A stretch of DNA of 37,450 nucleotides from Fidelibacterota bacterium (GCA_049975265.1 JBNGDF010000024.1:1-37450), one strand, 5' to 3'. Positions 585-18,217 are shown, counted from the stretch's first letter. Notes: generated from the sequence alone by a model not told the origin. A program made the numbers and translations.

Positions 585-2039
585 TTAACTCACCTGGTCA
601 ATCGCCCATTTCAGTGCATCCTGCAGTAAGCTATTCGGCGGCTCCTTGATATAGCCCTCTTCGATCAACGTTTTAGCCATTGTACGGGAATATTCGATAT
701 CCCGCTTTGCCCATTCGAACGCCTCGTCCCGGGTGATGATTTTACGCGCCACACCATCTTTGATCGCCTGCATGGCGACATCGGCTGATTCCGTCGGGAA
801 TACCGTGGCTTCATCCATTGTTGGTACTATATTATCCGGATTAATACCTCGGGCCTCAGCATAATCAGCCAGTGAATTCGCGGCTGCAATGGCCATCTCA
901 TCGGTGACCTTTCTGGCTCTGACCATCAGAGCGCCTTTCAGAATACCGGGAAATCCCAGTGAATTATTGACCTGATTCGGAAAATCGCCTCGTCCTGTGG
1001 CGACGATATATGCGCCGGCTTCTTTCGCCGCATATGGGTATATTTCAGGTACGGGATTGGCACAAGTGAACACTATCGGTTTTGTGCCCATCAATTTAAT
1101 GGAAGCCGGTTTGACAGTATCCGGTCCTGGTTTCGATAAAGCGATCAATACGTCAGCACCTTTCATAGCAGTATCGAAATCCTGGATTTTTTTCGGATTA
1201 GTTGTTTCACACAATTTCCAGGTTCCATGATACATCGGATTTTGCTGAAAATCCCGACGGTCTCTATCCAGTGCACCATTTACATCAAACATGATTACAT
1301 TGGCTGGATCGGCGCCGGCGGCGATACTGATCCGTGCTACGGATGTATTGGCTGCTCCGGCACCCAGCATCACGATGCGTATTTCTTCAATTTTTTTATT
1401 TACCAATTTTAATGCATTAATCAGTCCGGCCAGTGTCACGCAGGCAGTGCCTTGAGCATCATCGTGCCAGACAGGAATATCACATTCTTCCCGTAACGTA
1501 TCGAGAACTTTAAAACAATTGGGTTGTGATATATCTTCGAGGTTAATCGCACCAAAACTATGCTGACACATTTTGACGAAATCGATAATCTTCTGCGGAT
1601 CGTTTTTCCCGTTTTCATCTTTGCTGTCGACGCATAGTGCCACCGCGTCGACGCCGCCGAGATATTTCATCAGAAATGCCTTCCCCTCCATGACCCCCAA
1701 ACCACCGGGCGGCGTAACGTCACCATCACCCAGAACCCGGGTGGAATCGCTGACGACACCCACCAGATTTCCCCGGTTTGTCAGCTCAAAGGAAACATCG
1801 TTGTTATCCCGGATGGTGGTGGAGATTTTCGAAACACCCGGCGTATACCAGACATTGAACCAGTTGAAGCCGAACACGCCGGCTTTGGGAGCAGTCTGGA
1901 TTTTCCCGCCGTAAAAACGATGGGCATCTTCCGCCAGTTTTTTCAAAAACAGCGTCTTCGCTTTGGCAATCTGCTCCTGGGTGAATTTGTCGGGAAAGAC
2001 TTCGTTCAGGTTTTTTAGGTCAAGACTAATCTCTTTCAT
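585..2039 (-). CDS. NAD(P)-dependent malic enzyme
   Basis: Motifs YTPGV, DSTRVLGDGD, VMEGKA, NLEDI, HDDAQGTA, GAGAA and TGRGDFPNQVNN; ATG at 2039 preceded by GAGGAG (the track starts at TTG 2042); no PTA fusion. Confidence 0.92.
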   Translation of the reverse strand: MKEISLDLKNLNEVFPDKFTQEQIAKAKTLFLKKLAEDAHRFYGGKIQTAPKAGVFGFNWFNVWYTPGVSKISTTIRDNNDVSFELTNRGNLVGVVSDSTRVLGDGDVTPPGGLGVMEGKAFLMKYLGGVDAVALCVDSKDENGKNDPQKIIDFVKMCQHSFGAINLEDISQPNCFKVLDTLREECDIPVWHDDAQGTACVTLAGLINALKLVNKKIEEIRIVMLGAGAANTSVARISIAAGADPANVIMFDVNGALDRDRRDFQQNPMYHGTWKLCETTNPKKIQDFDTAMKGADVLIALSKPGPDTVKPASIKLMGTKPIVFTCANPVPEIYPYAAKEAGAYIVATGRGDFPNQVNNSLGFPGILKGALMVRARKVTDEMAIAAANSLADYAEARGINPDNIVPTMDEATVFPTESADVAMQAIKDGVARKIITRDEAFEWAKRDIEYSRTMAKTLIEEGYIKEPPNSLLQDALKWAIDQVS

Positions 2040-2073
2040 CAAAAATTCTCCTCACTATTGATTAATTAAATCT

Positions 2074-3747
2074 TTAAACCAGCGTTCCGAAATATTCAGT
2101 GGTTTTTTGCTTATATTTGACATGATCGGGAATATAATCGGGCAGCACGATGGGAGCGATTTTTTTTCCGGGAATACCCAATGCCTTTACCTCTTTGCTG
2201 TAATCATAGACATGCTGCATCGTCAATTTGCCGAATTGGACGCCCCGCTTTACCCGTTCCGCAGCCCAATAGCCACTCCGCCGACCAAATACGATCAGGT
2301 CCAGCTGCGAATTGCCCATCAGGCGGTTGCGTCCGTGGATACCGCCAGCGGCTTCACCAGCAACATATAATCCGGGAATTCGGGTTTCACCCTTATCGTC
2401 AATTTCGATTCCGCCATTCTGATAATGCAAAGTCGGGTAGACCAGCATGGGATATTTCACGATATCAATATCGAAGCGCTTATATTGCCGCAGCATCGCT
2501 GGTAAATATTTCTGGATTGCGCCGGCACCATTGATCAAATCAATCAGCGGCGTATCCAGCCAGATGCCTACTTTGCCGGTCGGCGTTTTGACCCCCTTGC
2601 CCCGCTCCGTACATTCACGGATGAATGCTGCCGCCTCGATATCCCGGGGTTCCAGCGGATAGACAAAGAGTTCACCGTCATAATTCACTGGTTGAGCACC
2701 CATAGACCGGATTTTTTCCGTACAGAGAAATCCCAGAATCTGTTCCGGGAAAACTGCTCCTGTAGGATGGTACTGAACCGAATCCATGAACAACAGATTG
2801 GCGCCGGCGCGATAAGCAATTACCAAACCATCTGCCGTTGCACCGTAATGATTCGTCGTCTCAAAGTCGCGGATATGCAGTCGCCCAAACCCGCCGGTGG
2901 CGATGATAATTGATGCCGCCTTGATAACGATATACTGCTTGGTTTCAAGATGGTAACCAATGGCTCCGACAGCCTGCCCTTTATTATCAAGGATTAATTC
3001 GATGATTGATGTGAATTCCAGAAATTTTATCTTCGCAGGCATGTTATACACTTCATCCCGCAATACCCGGCAGATTCCGGCGCCGGTATAATCACGGGCT
3101 GAGTGCATCCGATTGCGACAGGTCCCGCCCCCCGATTTGACCATCATGGAACCGTCTTCATTTTTATCGAACATGACGCCCAGCTCTTCCAGCCATTTGA
3201 TCGCTTCGGGACCGTCGTTGACCAGTGCCTTGACCAGGTCTGGTTTATTGTCAAAATGACCGCCGCCGATTACATCGAGATAGTGCAGAACCGGCGAATC
3301 GTCTTTCTGAGTAGCCGCCTGTATCCCGCCCTGCGCCATCATGGAATTGGAATCGCCGAGTCTTAGTTTTGTCGCGATCAGAACATTACAGCCGTTTACG
3401 CCCGCTGTAATTGCCGCCGCCATACCGGCTGAACCGGCTCCAATTACCAAAACATCCGTCACATAGTCGGGATTGTCAAGGTCGAGAATTGCCGGATCAA
3501 TCCGGGAATAGGATTCCAGCAGATTTGCCACCTCGGTGGTTAGCAGTTCGCCTTTGTTTGGACCAACCCGGATTTCCCGGCGCGCATCCTTTCTGTAATC
3601 GGGATGAAAGTTATCCAGCACCTTCTGGCGCTCACTTTCACTCATCGCCGGGAAAACCTGCTTGCCCATTTTCTTCGCCAACTCCAGCCGTTTTGGTCTG
3701 GTTTGTTCAACCATTTTAATCGACTTCATCATATAATCGGGATACAT
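2074..3747 (-). CDS. Soluble fumarate reductase/succinate dehydrogenase-family flavoprotein (FrdA/TfrA-like) with N-terminal extension
   Basis: GAGSAG FAD-binding motif, AQGG, IATGG; dicarboxylate-site motifs QYHPT, TEKIR, PRD, HYQNGG and HGRNRLMGNS; AAGGAG RBS. Confidence 0.85.
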   Translation of the reverse strand: MYPDYMMKSIKMVEQTRPKRLELAKKMGKQVFPAMSESERQKVLDNFHPDYRKDARREIRVGPNKGELLTTEVANLLESYSRIDPAILDLDNPDYVTDVLVIGAGSAGMAAAITAGVNGCNVLIATKLRLGDSNSMMAQGGIQAATQKDDSPVLHYLDVIGGGHFDNKPDLVKALVNDGPEAIKWLEELGVMFDKNEDGSMMVKSGGGTCRNRMHSARDYTGAGICRVLRDEVYNMPAKIKFLEFTSIIELILDNKGQAVGAIGYHLETKQYIVIKAASIIIATGGFGRLHIRDFETTNHYGATADGLVIAYRAGANLLFMDSVQYHPTGAVFPEQILGFLCTEKIRSMGAQPVNYDGELFVYPLEPRDIEAAAFIRECTERGKGVKTPTGKVGIWLDTPLIDLINGAGAIQKYLPAMLRQYKRFDIDIVKYPMLVYPTLHYQNGGIEIDDKGETRIPGLYVAGEAAGGIHGRNRLMGNSQLDLIVFGRRSGYWAAERVKRGVQFGKLTMQHVYDYSKEVKALGIPGKKIAPIVLPDYIPDHVKYKQKTTEYFGTLV

Positions 3748-3802: not shown

Positions 3803-4156
3803 TCATTTTTTAAGTTTTTGAATTAATCCATATAACATTTTCTGAATCTCATGAATTGCAATTGAGACTTCTTCAAATTTTTCAGATGAAATAAAGCCTA
3901 GATCCGACGATAAAATAATCTGTGTTTCTAATTCACAAGACGATGAGTATGCAATATCTAAAAAACGTAAAAAGTCCTTTGATGATGTTTTTCCTGCTCC
4001 CTCTGCAATGTTTGATGGAATGGATATTGCCGACCCCTGAATTTGAGAAATGAGACCATAGGTTTCAGCCTTTGGGAAACCAAAAGTTAATTCATAAACC
4101 ACTTTCACTAACTCTCTGGATTTCTGCCAAACTAATAATTCTTTAAACTGATGCAT
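3803..4156 (-). CDS. Four helix bundle protein (23S rRNA intervening-sequence protein / S23-like family)
   Basis: 117 aa; FKELLVWQKS, FPKAETYGLISQI, SIPSNIAEG and FLDIAYSSSCELETQI are family hallmarks; visibly more AT-rich than its neighbours. Confidence 0.92.
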   Translation of the reverse strand: MHQFKELLVWQKSRELVKVVYELTFGFPKAETYGLISQIQGSAISIPSNIAEGAGKTSSKDFLRFLDIAYSSSCELETQIILSSDLGFISSEKFEEVSIAIHEIQKMLYGLIQKLKK

Positions 4157-4190
4157 ATCTCACTACTCAATCCTCGTTACTCATAATCTA
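4157..4190. repeat. Degenerate heptamer tandem array, right arm of the inverted repeat flanking the four-helix-bundle gene
   Basis: CTCACTA CTCAATC CTCGTTA CTCATAA at 4159-4186; its reverse complement matches 3764-3793 at about 21/30 positions by hand alignment. Confidence 0.75.
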
Positions 4191-4874
4191 TTTTAACTTA
4201 ATCTCTCTTGCATAATACCGTTTGGATTGTTCCTCTCGCGGCATTTCGACAAGTTCATCCAGTTCCTTTTCGTATTTTCCATTCTCAATCTCGACAATCC
4301 GCTCTTCCAACTCCAGGCTTTTTTTATTCAGGTAACGCCCATATAGCCGCTGCGCAAGAGTTGCGGCATTGTACTGGACAATTTCAGCCGGACAGCGCAG
4401 GGCGCACAAACCACAACGAATGCAATCAAAGGAGAGGTCTGCTGCTTTGGCGATGTCGCCGCGCTTGAGTGCCTGCACATAATCCATTACCTTGATCTCC
4501 TGGGGACAGGCTTTTGTACAGGTATTGCAGGCGACACAGCGAAAAACCGTCGGAAAGAGAATCTTGATTGTATCCACGTCGGGGGTCAATTCCTTGATAT
4601 CGTAAACCGGTTTTTCCGCCGGTACAAAGGGAATCTGCGCCAGCATCATCCCATCACTAACCACCGTCTGACAGGCTAAGCCGCCCTTCAACTTATAGTC
4701 GCCCTTTTCCCGATAAACCGTGGCACAGGCGCCGCAAAAGCCCTCCCGGCAGCCAACTCCGCGCTTCATCTGAAATCCGGCGTACTCCATCGCCATAATG
4801 ATGGTCGAGCCTTCCGGTACATCATAGGCTTCACCCATGATGAATACTTTCACCATCTTCTGCTTTTCACTCAT
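4188..4874 (-). CDS. Fumarate reductase-associated iron-sulfur subunit (FrdB/TfrB N-terminal-like; [2Fe-2S] + 2x[4Fe-4S])
   Basis: CREGFCGAC...LACQT ([2Fe-2S]); CVACNTCTKACP and CIRCGLCALRCP (two full ferredoxin motifs); next to the flavoprotein. Confidence 0.82.
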   Translation of the reverse strand: MSEKQKMVKVFIMGEAYDVPEGSTIIMAMEYAGFQMKRGVGCREGFCGACATVYREKGDYKLKGGLACQTVVSDGMMLAQIPFVPAEKPVYDIKELTPDVDTIKILFPTVFRCVACNTCTKACPQEIKVMDYVQALKRGDIAKAADLSFDCIRCGLCALRCPAEIVQYNAATLAQRLYGRYLNKKSLELEERIVEIENGKYEKELDELVEMPREEQSKRYYAREIKLK

Positions 4875-5380
4875 TGATAAGCCTCCTTTAAAGCGTTCAA
4901 TCCCGATCTCATTTCGGAATCTTCGCCAGCTGTCATCTTTTTTATTTGCGCTTTAATATCAATAACTATCCGCCTCTTCTGCCTTTCGATTGCTCCGGAA
5001 AATGATTCTCCAAACGTCTGATTATCCTCAATTTCCACCGCCAGAAAATCAATCCTGTCGGGCACCATGAATCCACACTGACGGGCATATTTTAAAATAG
5101 AAAGAATATCCGTCGAGTGGATACTGAATGGTATATGCCCCTTAAAATCCGCCGCGGAGAAGCGGTGAATCGCACCAACCGGCTTCTTACCGGTGATTAT
5201 GGAATCAATGATGATCACCCGTTCATAGCCGTACATCTGATCCAGCAACCCGAATCCCGAATCCGCCGAAGCGATGACATCCCAGCCGCTGAATGCCGAC
5301 CTTAATTGCCTGGCAATGTAGACCCCGATTCCATCGTCGGTCAGCAGATTGTTGCCCAGCCCTATTATTAATACTTTCAC
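4871..5380 (-). CDS. [NiFe]-hydrogenase maturation endopeptidase (HyaD/HycI family)
   Basis: N-terminal IIGLGNNLLTDDGIG, IIIDS and SIHS motifs; GTG start overlaps the mvhD stop. Confidence 0.9.
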   Translation of the reverse strand: MKVLIIGLGNNLLTDDGIGVYIARQLRSAFSGWDVIASADSGFGLLDQMYGYERVIIIDSIITGKKPVGAIHRFSAADFKGHIPFSIHSTDILSILKYARQCGFMVPDRIDFLAVEIEDNQTFGESFSGAIERQKRRIVIDIKAQIKKMTAGEDSEMRSGLNALKEAYQ

Positions 5381-5784
5381 AACGGTGTATATTGAATCTG
5401 ACCCAATTCTCGAATTTCTTCGGTAAACTCATTCACAATTGCGGCAAAGCGTTTTCCCTCCGCCGCCGAAATCCACTCAAGACGGAGGCGTTCCTCGTTA
5501 ATATTCAGGTCAGTCAGCAGCTTCTTTAACAATTTCACCCGTTTCAGCGTCTGATAATTACCGGTCTGATAGTGACAATCGCCCGGATGGCAACCGCCGA
5601 TCAGAACTCCGTCGGCGCCGTTTCTGAAAGCATCCAGTACATGCTCCGGGTCCACCCGACTGGAACACATCAACCGGATGCCAATCACGTTCGGCTGATA
5701 ACTCAACCGGGATGTTCCCGCCAGATCCGCACCCGCCGAGGTACACCATTTACAAAAAAATGCGACTATCTTTGGTTCGAACAT
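5377..5784 (-). CDS. mvhD: F420-non-reducing hydrogenase delta subunit MvhD ([2Fe-2S])
   Basis: FCKWC...GADLAG...RLMCSSRVDP...GADGVLIGGCHPGDCHY...WISAAEG; all conserved Cys present. Confidence 0.95.
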   Translation of the reverse strand: MFEPKIVAFFCKWCTSAGADLAGTSRLSYQPNVIGIRLMCSSRVDPEHVLDAFRNGADGVLIGGCHPGDCHYQTGNYQTLKRVKLLKKLLTDLNINEERLRLEWISAAEGKRFAAIVNEFTEEIRELGQIQYTPL

Positions 5785-5793
5785 AGGTTACCC

Positions 5794-5925: not shown

Positions 5926-7878
5926 TCACGTTGTTAAAATCGCCTGGACCATTCTATTCAATTGCTCATCTGTAAAATTACGCTGCTGCGCGGCTCCCGA
6001 CGGGCAGGCAGCCGCACAGGCACCACAGGCTTCACAGAGTACTTCGTTCACTTCGACAATCCCTTTCTCCCGGCTGATCTTACGGGCATCATAGGGACAG
6101 ACCGCCACACACAGACCGCAGCCGGAGCAGAGCTCTTCATTAACACCGGTAATGATCGGATCGTGCAACAGGTATTCGTTGGCAAACAGATTGGTGACCA
6201 TCGCCGCCGCTGCCGCCGCCTGGGCAACGGTATCGGGAATGTCCTTCGGCGCCTGGGCACAACCCGCCAGATAGATGCCGGCACTCAGCGATTCCACCGG
6301 ACGGAGCTTCGGGTGAGCTTCTGTTAAAAAGCTGTTTTGATCGATTGAAATTTTCAACAGTTTCGCCAAATCCTCGATCCCCTTCGAGGGACGAATCGCC
6401 ATTGACAGGACCACCAGATCGGCGCGAATCTCCACATTGCTGCCGCTGAGCGTGTCTATCCCACAGACAACCACCTTATCGCCATCCTGGTATAATTTTG
6501 AAACTTTCCCGCGTAAATACAATACTTTATCCTCTTCCTGAGCGCGTTGATAAAACTCCTCATATCCTTTACCCCCGGCACGTACATCCATATAAAAAAT
6601 ATACGGCTGTCCGTCAGGAACGCGGTGTTTATAGAGCATCGCATGTTTGGTCGTGTACATACAGCAAATCTTTGAACAGTAGGGAAAATGATGCTCCGGG
6701 TCCCGGGAGCCCACACATTTGATAAACACAATCTCTCTGGGAATTTTCCCGTCCGAGAGTCGGCGTACCTCTCCGCCGGTGGGACCCGATGAAGAGAGCA
6801 GCCGTTCAAAGGTCAGTCCGTCAATGACATCGGGTATTTTGCCGCTGCCGTATTCACCCATATTTATTAACGGATAAACATCGTAACCGGTGGCAACCAC
6901 GATTGCGCCGACCTCTTCTTCGATATACGAATCCGTTTCCGTAAAATTAATCGCCTCAAAAGGGCAGATCTTCTCACAGACCCGGCATTTTCCCGTTTTG
7001 AAATAGGTACAATTATCGCAATCAATGACCGGTTTATTCGGCACCGCCTGAGGAAAGGGCGTAAAAATAGCTTTACGCTTTCCCAAACCCTGATCGAATT
7101 CCGAAGCTACCTTCTGCGGACATTTCTCGATGCAAAGACCACAGCCGGTGCATTTATCCCAGTCAACATACTTTGCTTTTTGCTTTATTTTTACTTTGAA
7201 ATTGCCGACAAATCCCGAAATATCCGCCAATTCCGAATAGGTCAACAGGCGGATTTGGGGATGCTGGGCGACCTCCACCATCTTCGGTGTCAGGATACAT
7301 TGCGAGCAGTCCAGCGTCGGAAAGGTCTCGGACAGCTGCGCCATGCGTCCCCCGATAGAGGACTGTTTTTCCACCAAAATCACCTCGTAGCCACTGTTGG
7401 CAATGTTCAGCGCGGCTTGAATTCCGGCGATGCCGCCCCCGAGCACCAACGCTTTCCGAACCACCGGTACTTTAATCGGTTCCAGACTCTCGTCCAACAA
7501 AGCTTTCTCCACTACCGATTTGATGATCCTTTTCGCCTTTTCGGTTGCTACCGCCCGATCTTTATGCACCCAACTGCACTGCTCGCGGATGTTGGCAATT
7601 TCACAATTAAAGGGATTCATATCCACGGTCTGAACCGCCAGACGAAAGGTGTTTTCATGCAGGGTGGGAGAACAGGCGGCGATTACAACAGCATCCAACT
7701 TTTCCGACTTGATTTTCTTTTTCACCAGATTCTGACCCGGATCAGAGCACATGTATTTATAATCCTGAATGTAGGCAATGCCCGGATAATCACGCAGGTC
7801 TTCTACGACTTTGGCAACATCCACCGTCGCGGCTATGTTAATCCCGCAGTGGCAGACAAAGACGCCGACTCTCTTCAT
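5926..7878 (-). CDS. hdrA: Heterodisulfide reductase subunit A (canonical length, 650 aa)
   Basis: VGVFVCHCGINIA, NIREQCSWVH, GGGIAG, TFPTLDCSQC, inserted ferredoxin domain, FERL, CVGSRD, CSKICCMYTTK, EAHPKLRPV, GCAQAPKDI, C-terminal 2x[4Fe-4S]. Confidence 0.96.
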   Translation of the reverse strand: MKRVGVFVCHCGINIAATVDVAKVVEDLRDYPGIAYIQDYKYMCSDPGQNLVKKKIKSEKLDAVVIAACSPTLHENTFRLAVQTVDMNPFNCEIANIREQCSWVHKDRAVATEKAKRIIKSVVEKALLDESLEPIKVPVVRKALVLGGGIAGIQAALNIANSGYEVILVEKQSSIGGRMAQLSETFPTLDCSQCILTPKMVEVAQHPQIRLLTYSELADISGFVGNFKVKIKQKAKYVDWDKCTGCGLCIEKCPQKVASEFDQGLGKRKAIFTPFPQAVPNKPVIDCDNCTYFKTGKCRVCEKICPFEAINFTETDSYIEEEVGAIVVATGYDVYPLINMGEYGSGKIPDVIDGLTFERLLSSSGPTGGEVRRLSDGKIPREIVFIKCVGSRDPEHHFPYCSKICCMYTTKHAMLYKHRVPDGQPYIFYMDVRAGGKGYEEFYQRAQEEDKVLYLRGKVSKLYQDGDKVVVCGIDTLSGSNVEIRADLVVLSMAIRPSKGIEDLAKLLKISIDQNSFLTEAHPKLRPVESLSAGIYLAGCAQAPKDIPDTVAQAAAAAAMVTNLFANEYLLHDPIITGVNEELCSGCGLCVAVCPYDARKISREKGIVEVNEVLCEACGACAAACPSGAAQQRNFTDEQLNRMVQAILTT

Positions 7879-8765
7879 AACAGCCCTTTCCTTTTTAAGA
7901 CCAGTCGGGGGTCAATGGCGTGCAGCTGAAAATCATGGAGGTTCGGCTTCAATCCCATCAGCAGTGCCAGCAGCTGGGTAAAATAGAGCACCGGAACAGT
8001 CTGAAACGAGGCATCTGCTTTCCGAATATCCCGCTGCACCTCATCCAGATTGTAATAACAAAGCGGACAGAGTGTAACCATCAGATCGGCACCATTTTTC
8101 ACAGCAGAACCAACGATTTTCCGGGCTCGCTCCCTGACAATTTCAGGTTCGTTGACAATCTGGTAGGAACCGCAGCAGTCCGTCCTGAAGGGGAAATAGA
8201 CGTTTTCACACCCGGCATGGGCTAAAATTTCCTCCATAATCACCGGATCATCGGGCGAATCAATGGCGATTTCCCGGGGTCGAAGCAGCATGCAGCCGTA
8301 GTAGGAAGCGACTTTCAGATTGACATCTTTTTTAATAATGGCAGCCTTTAATTTATCCAGACCGATCTGCCTGATCAGTGTCAAAATATCAATTACCTCG
8401 ACTTCATCACCATAAAATTGGGTATTCTCAAGGTCCATAAACTGATGAATCGTATCCCGTTTTTCCGCATCATTTTTAATGAATTCAATCGCTCGTTTCA
8501 GGGTATTGAAGCACATGGTGCAGAGCGCCAGCAGCTGCCGCCTGCCGCTCTCTTTGGCTTTCACCAACGTCCTGACGGGAGCGACTTGCTGCATCAGATT
8601 GTCCTGGCTCTGGGAAAAACAGACGCCGCAGCAGTACCAGTCTTCCAGCTCCGTCACGGATACACCCAGGCGTTCCAGGACCGCCAGTGCCGAGGTCTCA
8701 AAATTTTTAGCATTGGATTTCAAAGTACATCCCGGGTAGTAGGATAGTTCCATCGGCTTCTCCAT
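7875..8765 (-). CDS. hdrB: Heterodisulfide reductase subunit B (two CCG domains)
   Basis: YPGC...CCG...CTMC and YGC...CCG...CPLC; all 10 CCG-domain cysteines present. Confidence 0.93.
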   Translation of the reverse strand: MEKPMELSYYPGCTLKSNAKNFETSALAVLERLGVSVTELEDWYCCGVCFSQSQDNLMQQVAPVRTLVKAKESGRRQLLALCTMCFNTLKRAIEFIKNDAEKRDTIHQFMDLENTQFYGDEVEVIDILTLIRQIGLDKLKAAIIKKDVNLKVASYYGCMLLRPREIAIDSPDDPVIMEEILAHAGCENVYFPFRTDCCGSYQIVNEPEIVRERARKIVGSAVKNGADLMVTLCPLCYYNLDEVQRDIRKADASFQTVPVLYFTQLLALLMGLKPNLHDFQLHAIDPRLVLKRKGLL

Positions 8766-10663: not shown

Positions 10664-11632
10664 TTAAGACCGATCATGAAATTTGACTTTCAGCGATGAT
10701 GCCAGACTGAACATGTAAAATAAACCGGCGGGATCAATAACTGACTCCGCAAAGGCTTCGATTTTCCGCTCATCTTCACTCTCGAATTGCGAACTGAATC
10801 CCGCTAAAAATTTGGCACCCTGATCGTGAACGGCTTTCGTCGGACCGAAACAGCCGCGGCAGGGCATATTGGCATTGATACAGCGCTCGCCGCAGCCCGA
10901 ACGGGTCGCCGGTCCCAGACAGACGACACCCTCCGCCAGAAAACATTTATCAGCGGGAATGTTCGCCAGCGAAATGCGCTTAATATCCATGATTTTCAGC
11001 TTATCAGGTTTGGAGTCATTGCGCAGGCAACTGTCACAGAGCGATTTATCCGGCGCAAGGATAGTACCCTTTGCCGGTAATTTACCTGACAGTATCGCCG
11101 TAATCGCTTCCATAATCAGATCCGGTGGCGGTGCACATCCCGGCACATAGTAATCCACCTCAATCACCTGATCCAAAGCCCGCACCTCTGAATGCATCTC
11201 CGGCAATTCCAGCTCGCCCTCCTCGATGTGCGTAACTGCTTCCGGAAAAACATTATCCGGATTGTTGACAGACGGAACATTCCGGTAAACCGTCTCAAAC
11301 AGCTGCCGGAGGGAAGATAAATTCGCCAAGCCGGGGATTCCGCCCAGATGGGCACAGCTACCGAAAGCAACAATCAGACCGGATTTACGACGCAACAGTC
11401 TGACCCACTCCTCCTGCTCCGCTGTCCTCACTGCACCATTAATAAAAGCAACCGCTATCGAGCCGTCAGCCATGGTTTCAATATCACTCCTTTTGAAATC
11501 CATCGCCACCGGCCAGAGCACGATATCCACGGCGTCTACCACTTTCAGAATGTCTTCCGCCAGATCAACCACCGCCTCTTCGCAGCCCCCGCAGGAGGCG
11601 CACCAGTAAAAGGCAACTTGCGGTTTATCCAT
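10664..11632 (-). CDS. mvhG: [NiFe]-hydrogenase small subunit (MvhG)
   Basis: CASCGGC, FGSCA..GGIPGL, VPGCAP, CDSC, CLGPATRSGC and PCRGCFGP. Confidence 0.93.
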   Translation of the reverse strand: MDKPQVAFYWCASCGGCEEAVVDLAEDILKVVDAVDIVLWPVAMDFKRSDIETMADGSIAVAFINGAVRTAEQEEWVRLLRRKSGLIVAFGSCAHLGGIPGLANLSSLRQLFETVYRNVPSVNNPDNVFPEAVTHIEEGELELPEMHSEVRALDQVIEVDYYVPGCAPPPDLIMEAITAILSGKLPAKGTILAPDKSLCDSCLRNDSKPDKLKIMDIKRISLANIPADKCFLAEGVVCLGPATRSGCGERCINANMPCRGCFGPTKAVHDQGAKFLAGFSSQFESEDERKIEAFAESVIDPAGLFYMFSLASSLKVKFHDRS

Positions 11633-11656: not shown

Positions 11657-12541
11657 TTAATGGCATTCCTCAATCTTTTTACCTATTCCGATTTTTCCAT
11701 TCACTTCCCAGGTGTGCTTTTCAAGCCCGTAGGCAACAGTCATGAGTTGTGTAAAATAAACAACCGGGATATTTCTAAAATCCGGATACTTATGCTTGAT
11801 ATCATTTTGCCGATTATCGAGGTTGAAAGCGCACAGCGGGCAGGATGTGATCACAATATCGGCACCACTCCTTTGGGCATCCGTCAGGATGTCGTACCCC
11901 AGATTTACCACGGTATCTTTATTGTTAAGGGTCAAATAACTGCCGCAACACTTGTGCCTGCAGCGCCACTCAACCGCCTCGGCGCCAAGTGAACGGATAA
12001 AATCCTCCATAATTGTCGGGGTTTCATGATGATCGATTCCGATATCTTTCGGACGCAGCAACATACAGCCGTAATAGCCGGCGACTTTGAGATTTTTTAA
12101 CGGATTTACAACCTTACTCTGAATTTTGTCAAATCCGATCTCCCTTAACAGACTGAGAAAATGGATCAGCTCCACCGAACCGTCATAATCAATCTCGTTT
12201 GACATAAAATCATTGACAACTTTGAGATCATCCGGACTGTTTTTCATACGATTGTTGGATCGTTTAAGAGTATTATAACACATAGAACATAACGTCAACA
12301 GGCGTTTATTATCCTTTACAATGCCCTCTTGATTCATCTCTAAAACCCGTACAAAATTGCGAATTGGCGCCACATGGTGAATGATATCGTCCGTAGCCAA
12401 CGAGGAGACGACGCCGCAGCAGTTCCAGCGGGGGATTTCCACAAACTCAATACTTAGCTGTTTCGCAGCAGCGATAGCCGATTCTTCAAATTTCTTGGCA
12501 AAGGATTTCAGGGTACAGCCGGGAAAATAGGGGATTTTCAT
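11657..12541 (-). CDS. hdrB: Heterodisulfide reductase subunit B, second copy
   Basis: FPGC...CCG...CSMC and YGC...CCG...CPLC; clear paralogue of 7875-8765. Confidence 0.93.
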   Translation of the reverse strand: MKIPYFPGCTLKSFAKKFEESAIAAAKQLSIEFVEIPRWNCCGVVSSLATDDIIHHVAPIRNFVRVLEMNQEGIVKDNKRLLTLCSMCYNTLKRSNNRMKNSPDDLKVVNDFMSNEIDYDGSVELIHFLSLLREIGFDKIQSKVVNPLKNLKVAGYYGCMLLRPKDIGIDHHETPTIMEDFIRSLGAEAVEWRCRHKCCGSYLTLNNKDTVVNLGYDILTDAQRSGADIVITSCPLCAFNLDNRQNDIKHKYPDFRNIPVVYFTQLMTVAYGLEKHTWEVNGKIGIGKKIEECH

Positions 12542-12556: not shown

Positions 12557-12961
12557 TCAGGATACCAGCTTCCGGTTGGCGGCGATAATCGCAATGGGTG
12601 GTAATTCCCGCAATTCATCGGCAGAAATGCTGTTCAGGTCTACGCGGTCAATGGATTGCCGTAAATTAACGAGTCGGAGGGCTTCCGCCACTTTGGAGAC
12701 ATCCAGACCGCGCGGGCAGCGGACGGTGCAGGTATTGCAGGTCGCACATAACCACATTGTTTTCGATTCCAGCACATCCTCCTGACCTAGCAGAACTTTC
12801 CGCATTAATTGCGACGGCATAATGTCCATATCGTCAACAAAGGGACAACCGCCGGAACAGGTTCCGCACTGATCGCACAGCGTAATCACCTCCCCGCTCA
12901 ATTCCGCAATCAGTTCGAAGAAATCCACAGACTTATCATCTAGAGTAATTTTTTCGGACAT
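12557..12961 (-). CDS. hdrC: Heterodisulfide reductase subunit C, second copy
   Basis: CDQCGTCSGGCP and WLCATCNTCTVRCPRG. Confidence 0.92.
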   Translation of the reverse strand: MSEKITLDDKSVDFFELIAELSGEVITLCDQCGTCSGGCPFVDDMDIMPSQLMRKVLLGQEDVLESKTMWLCATCNTCTVRCPRGLDVSKVAEALRLVNLRQSIDRVDLNSISADELRELPPIAIIAANRKLVS

Positions 12962-15340
12962 CTATCCACGCTCCTGTTTGCCATCACCGGGATTCATCAT
13001 GACGTAATCGTAATCGGCGATTTCTTTGACCAGCTGATTGATCCGCTCAATAAAAGCGGTCATCATCCCCGACGCAAGTTCAGAAAACACAATTTGTTTG
13101 CCCGTTATTCCCATATCCTGAAGTTGCCGGGCGGCGGATTGAATGCTATCCCGGATACACTGCCGACTCCAGGGAAACCGGGAACTCTTTTCCGGACAAT
13201 CGCCGATCAATACACCATCGGCGCCCTGCTGAATTGTGTACAAAATCAATTGCGGAGTGATCCTCGCCGCACTGGGAATTCGGATGATCCGAACGTCAGC
13301 CGAATAACTCATTTTGCGGATACCCACCGCATCCGCCAGACGATAAGTGCAGGCATCATCGGCAAAAACGATAATTCGTTGCTGAGATACCCTTTTTCGT
13401 GACAGAGCCCCCTGCACCGCCGCATACAGCTGCGCATTGGTATAGCCGTGCAAATCGAGGGCTTCCGTCGGGCAGCTGGCGATACAAGCCCCACAGCCAA
13501 CACAGAGAGCCGCGATGACCTCAGCCCGGTTTTCCGTATTGATCGTAATGGCATTTTTCGGGCATGCCGAAAGGCATTTTCCGCATCCATCGCAGAGTTC
13601 ACTATGCACGAATGCCAGAATCGGATCAACTTCAAACTCTTTTTGAGCCAGCGCACCGATTACCCTCGAAGCGGCGGCACTGGCTTGCGCAACTGTATCG
13701 GGGATATCCTTCGGACCCTGCGCCGTTCCCGCTAAAAAGACACCTTCCACCAGCGTATCCACCGGTCTGAATTTCGGATGCGCTTCCTGAAAAAATCCAT
13801 CGGAACTTCTAGCCAGCTTTAGCAGATCAGCGATTTTCTCCGACGCTCTACTCAGCTGAATACCAGTCGATAAAACGATTAAATCAAACTCCGCTTCAAT
13901 AATCTTCCGGGAAAGAGTATCCTCAACGTGTATCACCAGCTTCTTATTCACCGGATTTTCACTCAACTCCGCAACCTTCCCGCGGATAAATTTGATACCC
14001 ATCGTCTGGGCTTTTTTATAGTATTCTTCATAGCCTTTCCCGAAAGCGCGAATATCGGTATAAAAAATATAGATATCGGTTTTCGGGCGCGCCTGCTTTA
14101 AAAGCGAGGCTAACTTAATGGCATACATACAGCAGACCCGGGAACAGTATTCCCGTCCGGTCTGTTCGTCCCGGGAACCGACACACTGAATAAACCCTAC
14201 CCGTTTACCCACCTCCCGGGGTGGCGGGTTTTCGGTAATATGGTCGACAATCCGCTCCATCTCAAGCCCGGTCACCACATTCCTATATTTACCGTAACCA
14301 AAAACCGGCTTCTCCCGCGGATCAATAATATCATACCCTGTGGCGACAATAATAGTATCAACGGTAAAATGAATGTCTTTTGGCTGCTGGGAAAAATCGA
14401 TCGCCTCCTGCGGACACACCTCTGCACATCGGTGACAGTCGCCGCCATTGAAAAACAGGCAGGCGTCCGAATCAATCAGATATTTATATGGAATTGCCAG
14501 CGCCGCAGGAATATAAATCGCCTTGCGGTTCAGAATTCCCTGCTCCCACTGATTCGGCACTGTCACGGGGCAAGCCACCGTGCACTTTTCACAGCCCAGA
14601 CACTGATCCATATCGATGCTGTCTTTAATATACCGGGGATGCTGCCTGGCATGAATCTCAAAATGCAGGCGATGTCCGGCAACATTTTCCACGGTCGTAC
14701 TGGTCAAAAGGCGGATACCGGGATGTTCCTGAACCTCAGCCATTTTGGGTGAAATAATACAGGCGGCACAGTCTTCAGTGGGAAAGGTCTTGGTAAGCCG
14801 CGCCATATTGCCGCCGATACTGGAATCCTTCTCAATCAGGGTTACCTCCTTACCGGCTGCCGCCAGGTCCAGTGAGGCTTGAATTCCGGCGACGCCGCCG
14901 CCAATTACCAGCACCCGGTTTCCCATGGCGATTTTCTTTTTATCCAATGGGTAATTATGTCGCACTTTCGCCAGTGAGGCAAGCAGCAGATCGATCGCCT
15001 TTTCAGTCGCAACGTCAGGATCATTGCGATGAGTCCAGGAACAGTGCTCCCGAAAATTTGCCATCTCCAGAACATAGGGATTCAGACCCGCTTTTTCGAG
15101 TGTCGCCTTAAAGGTCTTTTCATGAAACTGCGGAGAGCAGGAGGCAATTACGACCCGGTCCAGCCGGTGCTCCTGAACATCCTCAATGATCAATTTCTGA
15201 CCGGCGCCGGAGCACATGTTGGAGTGCTCTCTCAGTACAGCAATATTATCCTGATCCCGGATTGCCTCGGTTACCTTCTGAAGGTCTACGACCTTCGAAA
15301 TATTTCCGCCGCACTGACATAAATAGACACCAATTTTCAT
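12962..15340 (-). CDS. hdrA: HdrA fused to a degenerate C-terminal MvhD-like domain
   Basis: IGVYLCQCGGNIS, GGGVAG, TFPTEDCAAC, CVGSRD, CSRVCCMYAIK, EAHPKFRPV; the last ~145 aa align with MvhD (IIVFADDACTY...GADGVLIGDC). Confidence 0.92.
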   Translation of the reverse strand: MKIGVYLCQCGGNISKVVDLQKVTEAIRDQDNIAVLREHSNMCSGAGQKLIIEDVQEHRLDRVVIASCSPQFHEKTFKATLEKAGLNPYVLEMANFREHCSWTHRNDPDVATEKAIDLLLASLAKVRHNYPLDKKKIAMGNRVLVIGGGVAGIQASLDLAAAGKEVTLIEKDSSIGGNMARLTKTFPTEDCAACIISPKMAEVQEHPGIRLLTSTTVENVAGHRLHFEIHARQHPRYIKDSIDMDQCLGCEKCTVACPVTVPNQWEQGILNRKAIYIPAALAIPYKYLIDSDACLFFNGGDCHRCAEVCPQEAIDFSQQPKDIHFTVDTIIVATGYDIIDPREKPVFGYGKYRNVVTGLEMERIVDHITENPPPREVGKRVGFIQCVGSRDEQTGREYCSRVCCMYAIKLASLLKQARPKTDIYIFYTDIRAFGKGYEEYYKKAQTMGIKFIRGKVAELSENPVNKKLVIHVEDTLSRKIIEAEFDLIVLSTGIQLSRASEKIADLLKLARSSDGFFQEAHPKFRPVDTLVEGVFLAGTAQGPKDIPDTVAQASAAASRVIGALAQKEFEVDPILAFVHSELCDGCGKCLSACPKNAITINTENRAEVIAALCVGCGACIASCPTEALDLHGYTNAQLYAAVQGALSRKRVSQQRIIVFADDACTYRLADAVGIRKMSYSADVRIIRIPSAARITPQLILYTIQQGADGVLIGDCPEKSSRFPWSRQCIRDSIQSAARQLQDMGITGKQIVFSELASGMMTAFIERINQLVKEIADYDYVMMNPGDGKQERG

Positions 15341-15372
15341 AACCTGACTCTCCCTCAGAACCTAACGATAGC

Positions 15373-15400
15373 CTCTCACGCTGCTTCTCCAGCGAGAGAG
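15373..15400. other. Intergenic stem-loop between tusA and hdrA-mvhD*
   Basis: CTCTC-A-CGCTG / loop CTTCTC / CAGCG-A-GAGAG: two 5-bp helices with one mismatch and no U-tract. Confidence 0.55.
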
Positions 15401-15421
15401 ATATGTGCGTCCGACTGCCCT

Positions 15422-15637
15422 TTAAAACTGGATCTGCGCCCGATGCTTTCCGTCCCCTTCATCCATACAAAACAGCAATGTGCGTCCGGTCCTCTCACAC
15501 CAGGCTGCGATGTCTTTCGGAAAAGAGGGACAATCCGCTAAAACCTCCACCATTTCGCCCGCCGGAATCTCTTTGGCTTTTGCCGCAATTTTCAGGACCG
15601 GCTCGGGACACTTTAAACCTGTCAAATCCAACTCCAT
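15422..15637 (-). CDS. tusA: TusA/SirA family sulfur carrier protein
   Basis: 71 aa; LDLTGLKCPEP (CPxP motif), EVLAD and DIAAWC; GGAG RBS. Confidence 0.9.
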   Translation of the reverse strand: MELDLTGLKCPEPVLKIAAKAKEIPAGEMVEVLADCPSFPKDIAAWCERTGRTLLFCMDEGDGKHRAQIQF

Positions 15638-15656: not shown

Positions 15657-16013
15657 TTAAAATGAAAATGTCAGGGTCGCATCTTTGGCTTCGTTCAGGA
15701 AGGTTGTGGCTCCGACAATTTCGACACCTTCCCGGAAATCTTCAGCCCTTAGATCCTTCGCCTCCAACGCCAATTCGCAGACGAAGATTTTGCCACCCAA
15801 TGCTCTCAATCCCTCGTACAATTCAACAATATCCGGCAATCCTTTGGCGCCTCGCAGCGCTTCCAATTTGCCTTTCAACATAGTCGGCGCTCCGGCTGGC
15901 GTAAAGAAAATGATTACTTCATCTCCCAGAGCCGCCGCCGAAGACCCGATAATCATCGGTGGAAAAATATTCGCACCTTCTGCTCCATTACAGGTGATTG
16001 CCACTTTTGCCAT
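15657..16013 (-). CDS. DsrE/DsrF/DrsH-like protein
   Basis: AAALGDEVIIFFTPAG, GGKIFVCELAL and GVEIVGATTFL; start moved to ATG 16013 (GAGGAG RBS), giving 118 aa. Confidence 0.82.
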   Translation of the reverse strand: MAKVAITCNGAEGANIFPPMIIGSSAAALGDEVIIFFTPAGAPTMLKGKLEALRGAKGLPDIVELYEGLRALGGKIFVCELALEAKDLRAEDFREGVEIVGATTFLNEAKDATLTFSF

Positions 16014-16053: not shown

Positions 16054-16758
16054 CTATAGCGGGGGAACTTCATACGTGTAGAGATCGTCGGGATCGGTCA
16101 GCATTTTCATGCGACGTCTGGCATCGACATGCTCCGGATCCAGTTCCACCACCTTTTTTAAATGCTTAATGGCATAATCCTGATTATCTACACCCAGATA
16201 CGCCAGCGCCAGATGATAATGCACCGAGGTGACATTGGGATCCTCTTTCAGGATCGCCTTCAGACATTGAATCGCCTCTTCGTATTTGCCCGACGCCTTA
16301 TAGACAATCGCCAACTGATAGTACCCCAGCGTACCGGCAGAACTATTTTCGGTCAAACGTTTATAGGCTTCAATACTGCGTTTGAACTGACCTTTGTGAT
16401 AATGAGCCAGTCCTTCCCAGTAGGACGACATATATAACTCCGGCTCGATTTCCTGAATGTGATGAAAAACATTAATCGCATCGCTGAATCGGGTTGCCCT
16501 GAAGTATGAAATCCCCAGGCGATAAAGCGCAAAGGTATAATCGGGTTTGGCTTTTATTACTTTTTCAAATTCTGTAATGGAGTTTTTTATATCACCCAGG
16601 ACATAATAGAGCTCACCTAACTTAACCCGCAGGTCGTGTTGTTCGGGATTTTCCTTCAGAATCTCCTGCAGTTTCACAATCGCTTTCCCGATTTTTCCCT
16701 GCATTTCATACCCCAAAGCCTCCCGGCGCAGCTGTTCCAGATCACGCATAAAATGCAT
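16054..16758 (-). CDS. Tetratricopeptide repeat protein
   Basis: About six 34-aa TPR-like units (LGELYY..G...SI..FEKVI...P, HLALAY..., A...LKKVVELDP); no signal peptide. Confidence 0.88.
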   Translation of the reverse strand: MHFMRDLEQLRREALGYEMQGKIGKAIVKLQEILKENPEQHDLRVKLGELYYVLGDIKNSITEFEKVIKAKPDYTFALYRLGISYFRATRFSDAINVFHHIQEIEPELYMSSYWEGLAHYHKGQFKRSIEAYKRLTENSSAGTLGYYQLAIVYKASGKYEEAIQCLKAILKEDPNVTSVHYHLALAYLGVDNQDYAIKHLKKVVELDPEHVDARRRMKMLTDPDDLYTYEVPPL

Positions 16759-16796
16759 CCTTTCTAAATGAAAAATAACCGTTTAAGCTATCGATG

Positions 16797-17357
16797 TCAT
16801 TGATCGAGGGAATATTTTTCCACCCCCAGTTTATAAACATCGTTACCCCGTACGTCATTAGCGACAAATACCGGAAAATTCACAACCTGCAGTTCCCGAA
16901 TCGCCTCCGCTCCCAAATCTTCATAGGCAATGATCCGGGCGGATTGAACCGCCTGAGCCGTGACCACCGCAGCCCCACCAATAGCCGCCAGATAGACGGC
17001 TCTGTTTTTAACCATCGAATCGACGACAGCCTGACTGCGTGGTCCTTTACCGATCATTGCTTTTAAACCGGCATCCATCAGTGCCGGAGCATAGGGGTCC
17101 ATGCGGTAACTGGTAGTAGGACCCGCCGAGCCGATGGGTTTCCCCGGTCTGGCAGGAGAGGGACCGACATAATAAATCACTGCTCCCACCGGATCAAAGG
17201 GCAGCTCCTTCCCCGCTTGTAATAGCTCCACCAGCCGTTTATGCGCCGCATCCCGGGCTGTGTAAACAATCCCACTCAGTAACACTTTATCACCAACATT
17301 CAACTGTTCCAGCATTTCCGACGTCAACGGTGTCTGTAGTTGTATCTCCTTTGCCAT
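16797..17357 (-). CDS. Class I Fe-S fumarate hydratase, beta subunit
   Basis: GDKVLLSG..YTARDAAHKR, YYVGPSP, GPTTSYRMD and MIGKG; start taken at ATG 17357 (MAKEIQ, GAGAGG RBS) because the track's extra 88 aa overlap the alpha gene. Confidence 0.9.
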   Translation of the reverse strand: MAKEIQLQTPLTSEMLEQLNVGDKVLLSGIVYTARDAAHKRLVELLQAGKELPFDPVGAVIYYVGPSPARPGKPIGSAGPTTSYRMDPYAPALMDAGLKAMIGKGPRSQAVVDSMVKNRAVYLAAIGGAAVVTAQAVQSARIIAYEDLGAEAIRELQVVNFPVFVANDVRGNDVYKLGVEKYSLDQ

Positions 17358-17368
17358 TTTCAACCTCT

Positions 17369-18217
17369 CTATTCTATTACCGCAGTCTCGTGACGATGAA
17401 CATGACAGTCCACATTGACCGCTACCGGCATAGAGGCAATGTGACAGGGCATGGCAAGAATCTGAACCGCAAGGGCAGTAGTCCGACCACCCAATCCCTG
17501 CGGACCGATTCCCAGCCGATTGATCCGTTCCAATATTTCTTCCTCCACTTGCGCCCATTTCGGATCGGGATGTTTCTCCGTCAGAGGGCGCAGCAGCGCC
17601 TTCTTCGCCAGCAGCGCACATCGCTCAAAACTGCCGCCGATGCCGACCCCCACCACCACCGGTGGACAGGGATTGCCGCCGGAACGCTTAATCCGGTCCA
17701 CAACAAAATCCTTCACACCCTCAATGCCATCCGCCGCCTTCATCATCTTCACTTCGCTCATATTCTCCGCTCCGCCGCCCTTTGGTACCACAGTGATCTT
17801 CAATGTTTCACCGGGTACAAGGTCGGTATAGATCAGCGCCGGAGTGTTATCCCTGGTGTTTTTTCGTTCAATCACCGGATCGTCCACCATCGATTTCCGT
17901 AAAAAGCCGTCCTGATACCCCTGCCGGACACCTTCATTGATTGCCTCATAAAAATCACCACCCACCAGATGAATATCCTGCCCCAATTCGACGAATACCA
18001 CCGCCACTCCTGTGTCCTGGCAGAGAGGCATCTGCTCCTGCGCCGCCATTTTGTGATTCTCCAGCATCAGCGCCAGAATATCCTTTGCCGTCGGCGATTC
18101 TTCCTTTTCCATAAAATACCGGATTCGATCAACAACATCCGGACTGGCGTAATAGTTGGCATCAATACACAACTTTTTCACGATCGGTATAACCTGTGAA
18201 ACCTGAATCTCCTTCAA
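17369..18217 (-). CDS. Class I Fe-S fumarate hydratase, alpha subunit
   Basis: CQDTG, KGGGAEN, NPCPP, GPQGLGG, PCHIAS and CHVHR; probable TTG start at 18217 after GGAGGG (track start 18232). Confidence 0.9.
   Translation of the reverse strand: MKEIQVSQVIPIVKKLCIDANYYASPDVVDRIRYFMEKEESPTAKDILALMLENHKMAAQEQMPLCQDTGVAVVFVELGQDIHLVGGDFYEAINEGVRQGYQDGFLRKSMVDDPVIERKNTRDNTPALIYTDLVPGETLKITVVPKGGGAENMSEVKMMKAADGIEGVKDFVVDRIKRSGGNPCPPVVVGVGIGGSFERCALLAKKALLRPLTEKHPDPKWAQVEEEILERINRLGIGPQGLGGRTTALAVQILAMPCHIASMPVAVNVDCHVHRHETAVIE

Follow-up and report, generated by a model that had tools for sequence, protein, structure and literature searches.

A soluble fumarate reductase-like pair encoded with two alternative HdrABC modules in a Fidelibacterota genome: anatomy, relatives and likely role

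Results

Here we analyze a stretch of 37,450 nucleotides from a Fidelibacterota bacterium (GCA_049975265.1 JBNGDF010000024.1:1-37450; hereafter the window), which is the whole of contig C24 of a 2.86-Mb genome (95.3% complete, 48.7% GC), and focus on a cluster encoding a fumarate reductase-like pair, FrdA and FrdB, together with two heterodisulfide reductase (HdrABC) sets and an MvhAGD-type hydrogenase. The original prediction for this cluster was an undescribed, quinone-free system in which electrons from H2 are bifurcated to ferredoxin (Fd) and fumarate. Calling of open reading frames (ORFs), with products named by NCBIfam and Pfam profiles, yields 19 co-oriented minus-strand genes running from 18217 to 585, with 18 intergenic spacings of -4 to 141 bp, which bears out the predicted tight packing and gene names. 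Their order is fumA, fumB, TPR (tetratricopeptide repeat), dsrE, tusA, hdrA792, hdrC1, hdrB1, mvhG, mvhA, hdrC2, hdrB2, hdrA650, mvhD, protease, frdB, four-helix-bundle gene, frdA and mae. Within it we distinguish module X (dsrE tusA hdrA792 hdrC1 hdrB1) and module Y (mvhGA hdrC2 hdrB2 hdrA650 mvhD protease). The cluster genes, followed by the flanking features, are:

17369..18217, minus strand: fumA, class I fumarase alpha (NF004885 above cut-off)
16797..17354, minus strand: fumB, class I fumarase beta (NF005310 above cut-off)
16054..16749, minus strand: TPR protein (follows fumB in both locus types among relatives)
15657..16013, minus strand: DsrE-family protein, module X (PF13686/PF02635)
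15422..15637, minus strand: TusA-family protein, module X (PF01206; Cys10 and Cys36)
12962..15340, minus strand: HdrA792, HdrA core fused to a cysteine-poor MvhD-like domain, module X (profiles, residue alignment, tree)
12557..12961, minus strand: HdrC1, short 2x[4Fe-4S] type, module X
11657..12541, minus strand: HdrB1, CCG protein, module X
10664..11632, minus strand: MvhG, hydrogenase small subunit, module Y (best match NF045875 VhuG, below cut-off)
9186..10649, minus strand: MvhA, [NiFe] large subunit, module Y (best match NF041785 VhuA, below cut-off; both Ni-binding CxxC motifs, cleavable tail)
8769..9182, minus strand: HdrC2, module Y
7875..8765, minus strand: HdrB2, module Y
5926..7878, minus strand: HdrA650, standard HdrA, module Y
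5377..5784, minus strand: MvhD, all five cysteines, module Y (PF02662)
4871..5380, minus strand: hydrogenase maturation protease, module Y (TIGR00072 above cut-off)
4188..4874, minus strand: FrdB-like Fe-S subunit, 228 aa ([2Fe-2S] motif and two complete [4Fe-4S] motifs, no CCG domain)
3803..4156, minus strand: four-helix-bundle gene, 23S rRNA intervening sequence protein (IVP) family (TIGR02436/PF05635)
2074..3747, minus strand: FrdA or 'TfrA-like' flavoprotein (structure and residue comparison)
585..2039, minus strand: mae, malic enzyme (PF00390 and PF03949)
532..564, minus strand: 14-bp hairpin, possible terminator (fold)
18218..18626, no strand: AT-rich gap of 409 bp, likely promoter region (34% GC)
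18627..19499, minus strand: sucD, succinyl-CoA synthetase alpha (NF004230 above cut-off)
19499..20668, minus strand: sucC, succinyl-CoA synthetase beta (NF001913 above cut-off; adjoins fumA or frdA in relatives)

The cluster looks cytoplasmic throughout. No CXXCH haem motif or Tat motif was found in any of its 19 products and a hydropathy scan found no clear membrane helix among them (the top 19-residue value is 1.84, in a Rossmann strand of FrdA, vs 2.87 for a major facilitator superfamily control), in agreement with the predicted lack of a membrane anchor or cytochrome gene. The 409-bp gap 5' of fumA, at 34% GC against 48.7% for the genome, shortens to 394 bp if fumA starts at the TTG at 18232, and so matches the AT-rich boundary of ~390 bp originally proposed; a promoter scan performed at chance (25 found vs 24.8 expected). 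The intrinsic terminator claimed for the other end fared less well. A 14-bp hairpin does fold at 564-532, 3' of mae, but because the terminator scan did not call it, a terminator there is only plausible. An assembly chimera was ruled out, as the window has no N runs and the related genome G003 is colinear over the TPR-dsrE-tusA-hdrA792 and hdrB1-mvhG stretches.

The flavoprotein retains what a fumarate reductase needs for catalysis. FrdA matches Frd, Sdh and NadB structures over residues ~95-500, carries a ~95-aa N-terminal extension and has no C-terminal helical domain. In an alignment of 85 clade sequences, restricted to near-full-length matches (at least 500 aa and at least 50% identity), the catalytic residues H327, T343, E344, R347, R368, H441 and R475 are invariant (85/85), which favors the original assignment as a fumarate reductase, and the position of the covalent-FAD histidine is Asn (Asn134 in FrdA) in all 85. 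Non-covalent FAD favors reduction. The closest named FrdA relatives carry the labels Neomarinimicrobiota or Fidelibacterota. A NadB identity was ruled out by a Gly at the Glu121 specificity position and by a genuine NadB on contig C6 beside a nadA-like ORF, and since NadB is thus a separate gene, FrdA is the only Frd/Sdh candidate of the genome. The cultured Ilyobacter polytropus has an hdrBCA-mvhD-flx-frdBA cluster that begins with aspartate ammonia-lyase and ends with an FrdA 55% identical to that of the window, and this position of the lyase supports both fumarate as the substrate and the reductive direction. The FrdA/FrdB pair is likely to reduce fumarate. Whether it deserves the name thiol:fumarate reductase (Tfr) is another matter. 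TfrA is the best NCBIfam match of FrdA, but at 309.6 vs a cut-off of 718; FrdB has no TfrB match at E<=1e-8 and no CCG half, which only the separate HdrB proteins resemble. Methanogen TfrAB (NF004900/NF004898) is soluble and lacks the covalent-FAD histidine, as does FrdA of the window. Because the TfrA cut-off is failed, FrdAB would at best work like Tfr without being a strict member, and a strict Tfr identity has to be given up, given a FrdB without a CCG half and a genome in which ComA was not found, in a search that did not extend to coenzyme B (CoB) genes or other coenzyme M (CoM) routes.

The association of this pair with Hdr is constant among relatives. The FrdA clade is present in 19 of 41 related genomes, and HdrA in all 19 of these vs 4 of the 22 without the clade, one of the four (G029) having a Y cluster cut at a contig end; as kin among the 41 are not independent, these counts describe and are not a statistical test. 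This upholds the predicted tie of the Frd pair to Hdr. Across phyla we counted 87 non-duplicate loci, many of which end at contig edges, after dropping 11 that duplicated loci from the related genomes, and HdrA was counted in a locus only when at least 200 aa aligned. These loci contain frdB (81), any hdr gene (67) or a complete hdrABC (39), electron-input genes of the Mvh (20), Flx (20) and Kor (26) types, fumarase (22), malic enzyme (22), tusA (3) and dsrE (2), and none of the 87 has an sdhC/D match. The neighbors that recur across phyla are fumarase, malic enzyme, SucCD, ATP citrate lyase (ACL) or aspartase. Judging from gene neighborhoods, Frd-Hdr is the constant core and the electron input is the exchangeable part. 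One apparent argument for direct wiring between Hdr and Frd, the retention of HdrC next to Frd without HdrB in ACL-bearing Proteobacteria, was rejected, since four of the five genomes encode an HdrB of 48% identity at another site and all five have HdrA. In four Anaerolineales loci (L067, L073, L077 and L078), frdB and frdA are separated by an acyl-CoA dehydrogenase-like gene and belong to a cluster with multiple HdrAs.

The two Hdr modules form a natural deletion series around the same reductase. X alone lies upstream of frdBA in G001 and G014, and also in G025 and G032 with fewer carriers; Y alone is found there in G002, G005, G009 and G012, with variants in G015; and both occur in the window, in G003 (colinear over the junctions), in G050 (where a remnant of mvhG separates the sets) and in G006 (on separate contigs). 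A recent tandem duplication was ruled out, because HdrA792 and HdrA650 are only 43% identical and fall into separate, well-supported clades of a quick tree. These separate clades, together with relatives that have X only, Y only or both, indicate that the double Hdr locus is old, with independent losses, and that neither set is required for the other. A two-set thiol cycle as a requirement was likewise ruled out, as single-set loci are the rule, and the original view of the two sets as needed halves of one cycle does not survive the finding that relatives keep Frd with either set alone. Both HdrAs retain the equivalents of E356, K409 and the intersubunit C197 of the structure 5ODC. Since K409 and E356 have described roles in bifurcation (PMC12054007), the capacity to bifurcate that was attributed to HdrA is plausible for both copies. 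Module Y has the genes of a group 3c hydrogenase, i.e., MvhA, MvhG and MvhD with Ni motifs and [2Fe-2S] cysteines beside hdrABC, and free MvhD has all five cysteines in 45/45 sequences, whereas the MvhD-like tail of HdrA792 has no equivalents of MvhD C11, C40 and C70 in 11/11. Module X and Frd occur in G014 (96% complete) and G001 (87%) without MvhA and without any other MvhD-family match, so the combination exists without a [2Fe-2S] entry port. Because its fused MvhD domain has lost three of five cysteines, module X likely takes its electrons from reduced ferredoxin, with no hydrogenase involved. When metagenomes were scanned with the C-terminal domain of HdrA792, one distant locus emerged from 53 pattern matches. 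Two paralogues of the HdrA792 clade occur in G008 (L141, L036), one accompanied by an ordinary MvhD and a hydrogenase, the other bearing the cysteine-poor fusion; they apparently share a single HdrCB across a contig break and may show the origin of the fusion.

TusA and DsrE seem to follow Hdr rather than Frd. TusA has the catalytic Cys10 and a second cysteine, Cys36, that replaces the aspartate of E. coli TusA, and orthologues that are 81-96% identical lie beside hdrA792 in G000 (this genome), G001, G003, G014, G025 and G050. TusA is present in 6 of 30 family genomes, five of them with HdrA792, while the sixth, G018, carries dsrE-tusA after another Hdr-Mvh cluster and has no Frd of this kind. 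No TusA turned up in Y-type genomes, among them G009 (98% complete) and G012 (97%), and five HdrA792 loci have no adjacent tusA (L029, L064, L070, L094 and L104). Since the genomes with TusA carry HdrA792 or, in G018, another Hdr-Mvh cluster without Frd, TusA and DsrE are best seen as putative accessories of Hdr, not of Frd. They are not needed for the H2 module and TusA was not found in Y-type genomes, which contradicts their original placement within the H2 system. High conservation and the second cysteine are compatible with a role of TusA as a dithiol carrier. A GC-rich hairpin between tusA and hdrA792 (15341-15421) is possibly an RNA processing or stabilizing element. The only DsrC-family protein of the genome has one C-terminal Cys; a one-cysteine DsrC/TusE-like gene and a DsrE2-like gene lie immediately 5' of nqrA-F, and EtfBA and a GlcD-like dehydrogenase come next (C8:26356-37371; L127, L136).

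The remainder of the genome offers several outlets for reduced ferredoxin and some evidence of quinones. It encodes Rnf, an Mbh-type group 4 [NiFe] complex with hyp genes, an Mbx-like complex and a group A [FeFe] hydrogenase, with hypA-E on contig C20, as well as PFOR, Kor (contig C1), citrate synthase, aconitase, isocitrate dehydrogenase, Pta/Ack and several small ferredoxins, and a methylmalonyl-CoA mutase adjoins a Na+-decarboxylase-type cluster. ACL, malate dehydrogenase (MDH), aspartase and Dcu were not found in this 95%-complete genome, nor were SdhCD/FrdCD or cytochrome bd or bo; FlxC has no match in the genome and there is no flxABC in the cluster. As for quinones, the genome encodes a Na+-NQR, of which NqrA, B, C and F score above cut-off, as does a MenA-like gene; it also has a partial MenG-like gene and an nrfH followed by an nrfA split into two ORFs (C7:125317-127541; a pseudogene or an assembly error), whereas the menaquinone ring-synthesis genes menBCD, MqnA, MqnC and UbiD were not found in the genome. 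Because NQR, MenA-like, partial MenG-like and NrfH are present, the cell may use salvaged menaquinone and is probably not quinone-free. NqrA occurs in 12/19 Frd-positive vs 11/22 Frd-negative genomes and MenA in 13/19 vs 10/22, and this lack of association with the cluster argues against a quinone link for Frd. The label "quinone-free" would fit the cluster, which shows no link to quinone genes among the 41 genomes, better than it fits the cell.

Several neighboring features deserve mention. sucCD is co-oriented and directly upstream of the AT-rich gap, and the gap between the sucD and fumA ORFs is 21-57 bp in 4/9 related loci and 219-362 bp in the other five; sucCD belongs functionally to the cluster. 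The four-helix-bundle IVP gene is, from its distribution, a passenger and not part of the enzyme; IVP genes are patchy in relatives and sit in differing gaps, frdB/frdA or hdrA/mvhD (3803-4156 and 5785-5925 in the window), and the AT-rich gaps that flank them may be insertion sites. Elsewhere in the genome there are three Rnf/Nqr-type systems, on contigs C8, C10 and C26 (L127, L131, L128), the last with D/G/E/A-like genes and an NqrF-like gene and with no RnfC or NqrA seen there. The Mbh-type group 4 [NiFe] operon (C20:8198-20437; L130) is headed by AsrA/AsrB-like genes that could give an NAD(P)H module. Contig C32 (9838-12373) has, near a ccsA-like gene, a pentahaem cytochrome c and a monohaem porin-like gene, although the genome is otherwise fermentative. 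A prenyltransferase resembling digeranylgeranylglyceryl phosphate synthase and a second UbiA beside a geranylgeranyl reductase (C31:8164-9003 and C9:62751-65076; L125, L126) suggest archaeal-type ether lipid genes, which are reported in bacteria of the Fibrobacterota-Chlorobiota-Bacteroidota (FCB) group.

Discussion

The central proposal of this study, which we consider rather probable, is that MvhAGD-HdrA650 splits the electrons of H2 between ferredoxin and fumarate, with module X as an alternative that is likely ferredoxin-fed; from sequence we infer that fumarate is the substrate and reduction the direction, that electrons are bifurcated, that the proteins form a complex and that ferredoxin feeds X. 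A cytoplasmic FrdA/FrdB pair would draw electrons from either of two alternative HdrABC modules. In module Y, electrons would pass from H2 through MvhAG and MvhD to the FAD of HdrA650, whose flavin would send the low-potential electron to ferredoxin and the high-potential electron through HdrC2/B2, FrdB and FrdA to fumarate, for a net reaction of 2 H2 + Fd(ox) + fumarate -> Fd(red) + succinate. We see a direct transfer of electrons from HdrC/B to FrdB and a transfer by way of a thiol/disulfide carrier on HdrB as about equally likely. Reduced ferredoxin could then drive ion pumping by Rnf or the Mbh-type complex, or carboxylation by 2-oxoglutarate/pyruvate oxidoreductases, while pyruvate would be turned into fumarate by malic enzyme and fumarase, and succinate could proceed to propionate through SucCD, methylmalonyl-CoA mutase and the Na+-pumping decarboxylase-type cluster. 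With potentials of -414 mV for H2, -500 mV for ferredoxin and +33 mV for fumarate, the four-electron reaction of module Y is calculated to yield -70 kJ at 1 bar H2, -24 kJ at 10 Pa and ~0 at 0.1 Pa, and at a succinate:fumarate ratio of 100:1 equilibrium lies near 1 Pa H2. With a CoM/CoB-like acceptor at -143 mV, the calculated reaction would stall near 100 Pa H2 unless pulled by fumarate. The originally proposed chemistry of H2, ferredoxin and fumarate thus stands as the most likely reading, exergonic by calculation down to ~1 Pa H2. A more elaborate version, which we think improbable, is a switchable hub in which the H2-bifurcating arm is joined by an arm whose capped, Fe-S-less MvhD takes ferredoxin or sulfur-carrier electrons, with the highly conserved two-cysteine TusA, a protein, taking the place of the CoM/CoB thiol pair and with HdrA792 and HdrA650 possibly forming an asymmetric heterodimer.

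Several observations weigh against this proposal. The active site of FrdA deviates from that of known fumarate reductases, with Gly206 at the Phe116 position in 84/85 sequences and additional clade-specific basic residues at K345 (81/85) and R473 (82/85). HdrB1 and HdrB2 score 165 and 158 bits on the SdhE anchor model vs 144 and 151 on the HdrB model, all far below cut-off. No hdr gene is nearby in 20 of the 87 loci, which are mostly short stretches or contig edges, but L047, L048 and L055 are long. Because no MDH, aspartase or Dcu was found, fumarate supply would depend on malic enzyme running in the less usual carboxylating direction. Finally, Mitchell et al. (2024; PMC11636981) saw operon-like expression of the Hdr-Flx cluster in the tubeworm symbiont, from which tfrAB deviated.

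Four rival explanations were considered. The lack of MDH lets SucCD, Frd, fumarase and malic enzyme read naturally as an oxidative route, from succinyl-CoA through succinate, fumarate and malate to pyruvate, and the cluster might then run in reverse, confurcating succinate and reduced ferredoxin to H2 while oxidizing propionyl-CoA or 2-oxoglutarate when partners keep H2 very low. The methylmalonyl-CoA mutase and decarboxylase/carboxylase cluster in the genome would suit such a metabolism, as would the equilibrium near 1 Pa H2 at a succinate:fumarate ratio of 100:1. We nevertheless regard it as unlikely, because the covalent-FAD histidine is missing in 85/85, the reaction would be uphill above ~1 Pa H2, and homologous clusters occur in aspartase, succinate-producing or rTCA (reductive tricarboxylic acid cycle) settings. 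The best scores of HdrB1 and HdrB2 on the SdhE model (NF042965) raise instead the prospect of a monotopic, type-E-like menaquinol:fumarate reductase made of FrdAB and HdrB/C, which would reoxidize the quinol of Na+-NQR and leave Mvh-HdrA with a separate function. Type E enzymes have two [4Fe-4S] motifs in the counterpart of FrdB, as FrdB itself does, and NqrA, B, C and F and MenA-like proteins above cut-off, with a partial MenG-like one, are encoded in the genome. However, type E enzymes do not need HdrA, which is present in 19/19 Frd-positive genomes; NqrA (12/19 vs 11/22) and MenA (13/19 vs 10/22) are unassociated with Frd; menBCD, MqnA, MqnC and UbiD were not found in the genome; NrfH is an alternative quinol sink; and the profiles for type E succinate:quinone and menaquinol:fumarate reductases are missed by far (SdhE 165 and 158 vs a cut-off of 500, SdhA 189 vs 1100). 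This explanation is, in our view, decidedly improbable.

The two others concern what the enzymes act on. One or both Hdr modules might turn over sulfur bound to TusA/DsrE, by persulfide reduction or oxidation, with fumarate reduction coupled only through the sulfur chemistry of module X or merely co-regulated. A TusA conserved at 81-96% beside hdrA792 in six genomes including this one speaks for it, and so does the dsrE-tusA pair after a different Hdr-Mvh cluster in G018, which is without this Frd; sulfur oxidation by TusA/Hdr has also been proposed for related Cloacimonadota (Williams et al. 2021, PMC8542988). Yet TusA is in just 6/30 family genomes and was not found in the Y-type G009 and G012, HdrA792 lacks an adjacent tusA at five loci, and the sole DsrC-family protein has one C-terminal Cys, so we hold this explanation to be doubtful at best. 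A flavoprotein acting on an unsaturated acid other than fumarate would account for the clade-specific Gly206, Lys345 and Arg473, the lack of a C-terminal domain, the scores far below Frd/Sdh/Tfr cut-offs and the acyl-CoA dehydrogenase genes between frdB and frdA in some Anaerolineales loci. We find it very unlikely, considering the invariant dicarboxylate-binding residues, the recurrence across phyla of fumarase, malic enzyme, SucCD, ACL or aspartase as neighbors, and the lack of a second Frd/Sdh in the genome.

If H2 bifurcation to ferredoxin and fumarate is indeed what this cluster does, it would represent a quinone-free way to conserve energy from fumarate reduction, and it would name a high-potential acceptor for the many bacterial HdrABC complexes that operate without CoM and CoB. 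The host is an uncultured anaerobe, but the family has a cultured carrier, I. polytropus, and the natural deletion series, in which close relatives combine one reductase with X and Y, X only or Y only, offers a way to find out which components H2 bifurcation requires and what role the cysteine-poor MvhD fusion has.

How does this cluster compare with known systems? Module Y has all six subunit types, the HdrA flavin residues and the cluster cysteines of methanogen MvhAGD-HdrABC (5ODC; PMC6019823), but it differs by its short HdrC, by HdrB/C that are far below methanogen cut-offs, by its link to a fumarate reductase and by the lack of a ComA match. For module X, a parallel is HdrA2B2C2 of Methanosarcina acetivorans, a ferredoxin-dependent reductase (Yan et al. 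2017, PMC5296606) in which HdrA is also fused to an MvhD domain and which is a precedent for ferredoxin input; the fused MvhD of HdrA2 has the [2Fe-2S] motif, whereas that of HdrA792 has lost three of five cysteines. The idea of coupling Hdr to fumarate reduction has been in print for some time. Rubin-Blum et al. (2019; PMC6315080) proposed Flx-HdrABC and 'TfrAB' as a complex bifurcating to 2-oxoglutarate oxidoreductase (OGOR) and fumarate reductase, directly or via thiols. The FlxABCD-HdrABC/'TfrAB'/KorABCD clusters of tubeworm symbionts and Thioflavicoccus have an FrdA of the same clade; over residues 1-547, FrdA of the window is 61% identical to those of L098 (the Escarpia laminata symbiont) and L100 (RIFOXYD12_FULL_61_37), both organisms named in that paper; the tubeworm-symbiont cluster differs by NADH (Flx) rather than H2 input, a single HdrA and an autotrophic rTCA setting. 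In the cultured Pseudoclostridium thermosuccinogenes, a 'succinate operon' combines fumarase, Hdr and a two-gene fumarate reductase, as the window does, a likeness drawn from its published description, and a link between the making of succinate and the reduction of ferredoxin was proposed for it (Koendjbiharie et al. 2020, PMC7282089); it differs by its Flx input and lack of a hydrogenase.

A close counterpart is the cluster of Ca. Celaenobacter (Cloacimonadota), in which Williams et al. (PMC8542988) reported TFR, OGOR, fumarase, succinyl-CoA synthetase, a group 3c Mvh and Hdr. They interpreted it as bifurcation of H2 electrons coupled to the reduction of fumarate, and they also described an Hdr cluster with TusA in Ca. 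Stygibacter. Cloacimonadota loci of the Celaenobacter layout have FrdAs that are 67-73% identical to that of the window. Both the idea and a cluster much like this one, with Mvh, Hdr and Tfr, had thus been published (PMC6315080, PMC8542988, PMC7282089), and the system can no longer be called undescribed, as was first claimed. A 2023 brine-pool preprint repeats the Hdr-fumarate-reductase model for Bipolaricaulia, a 2026 survey still calls such a complex a suggestion (PMC13147460), and the available parts of PMC9324843 and PMC12590816 contain no Frd-Hdr mechanism. In literature that did not include subscription journals, we found neither a biochemical test of an Hdr-linked fumarate reductase nor an account of a form that has two Hdr sets and a cysteine-poor MvhD fusion. 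With hdrABC and an Mvh input co-located and no membrane anchor, the window cluster fits the bacterial, Hdr-linked 'TfrAB-like' type, and it departs from that type in having no KorABCD inside and no ACL-type rTCA found. In Ca. Celaenobacter, OGOR lies inside the cluster and ACL elsewhere (rTCA), with no second Hdr set mentioned in the available text. The window, unlike it, has Kor on another contig, no ACL or MDH found, two Hdr sets, a cysteine-poor MvhD fusion and TusA/DsrE. While the basic pairing of Hdr with fumarate reductase had already been proposed, what is new here is the two-module anatomy, the cysteine-poor second HdrA with TusA/DsrE and the natural deletion series.

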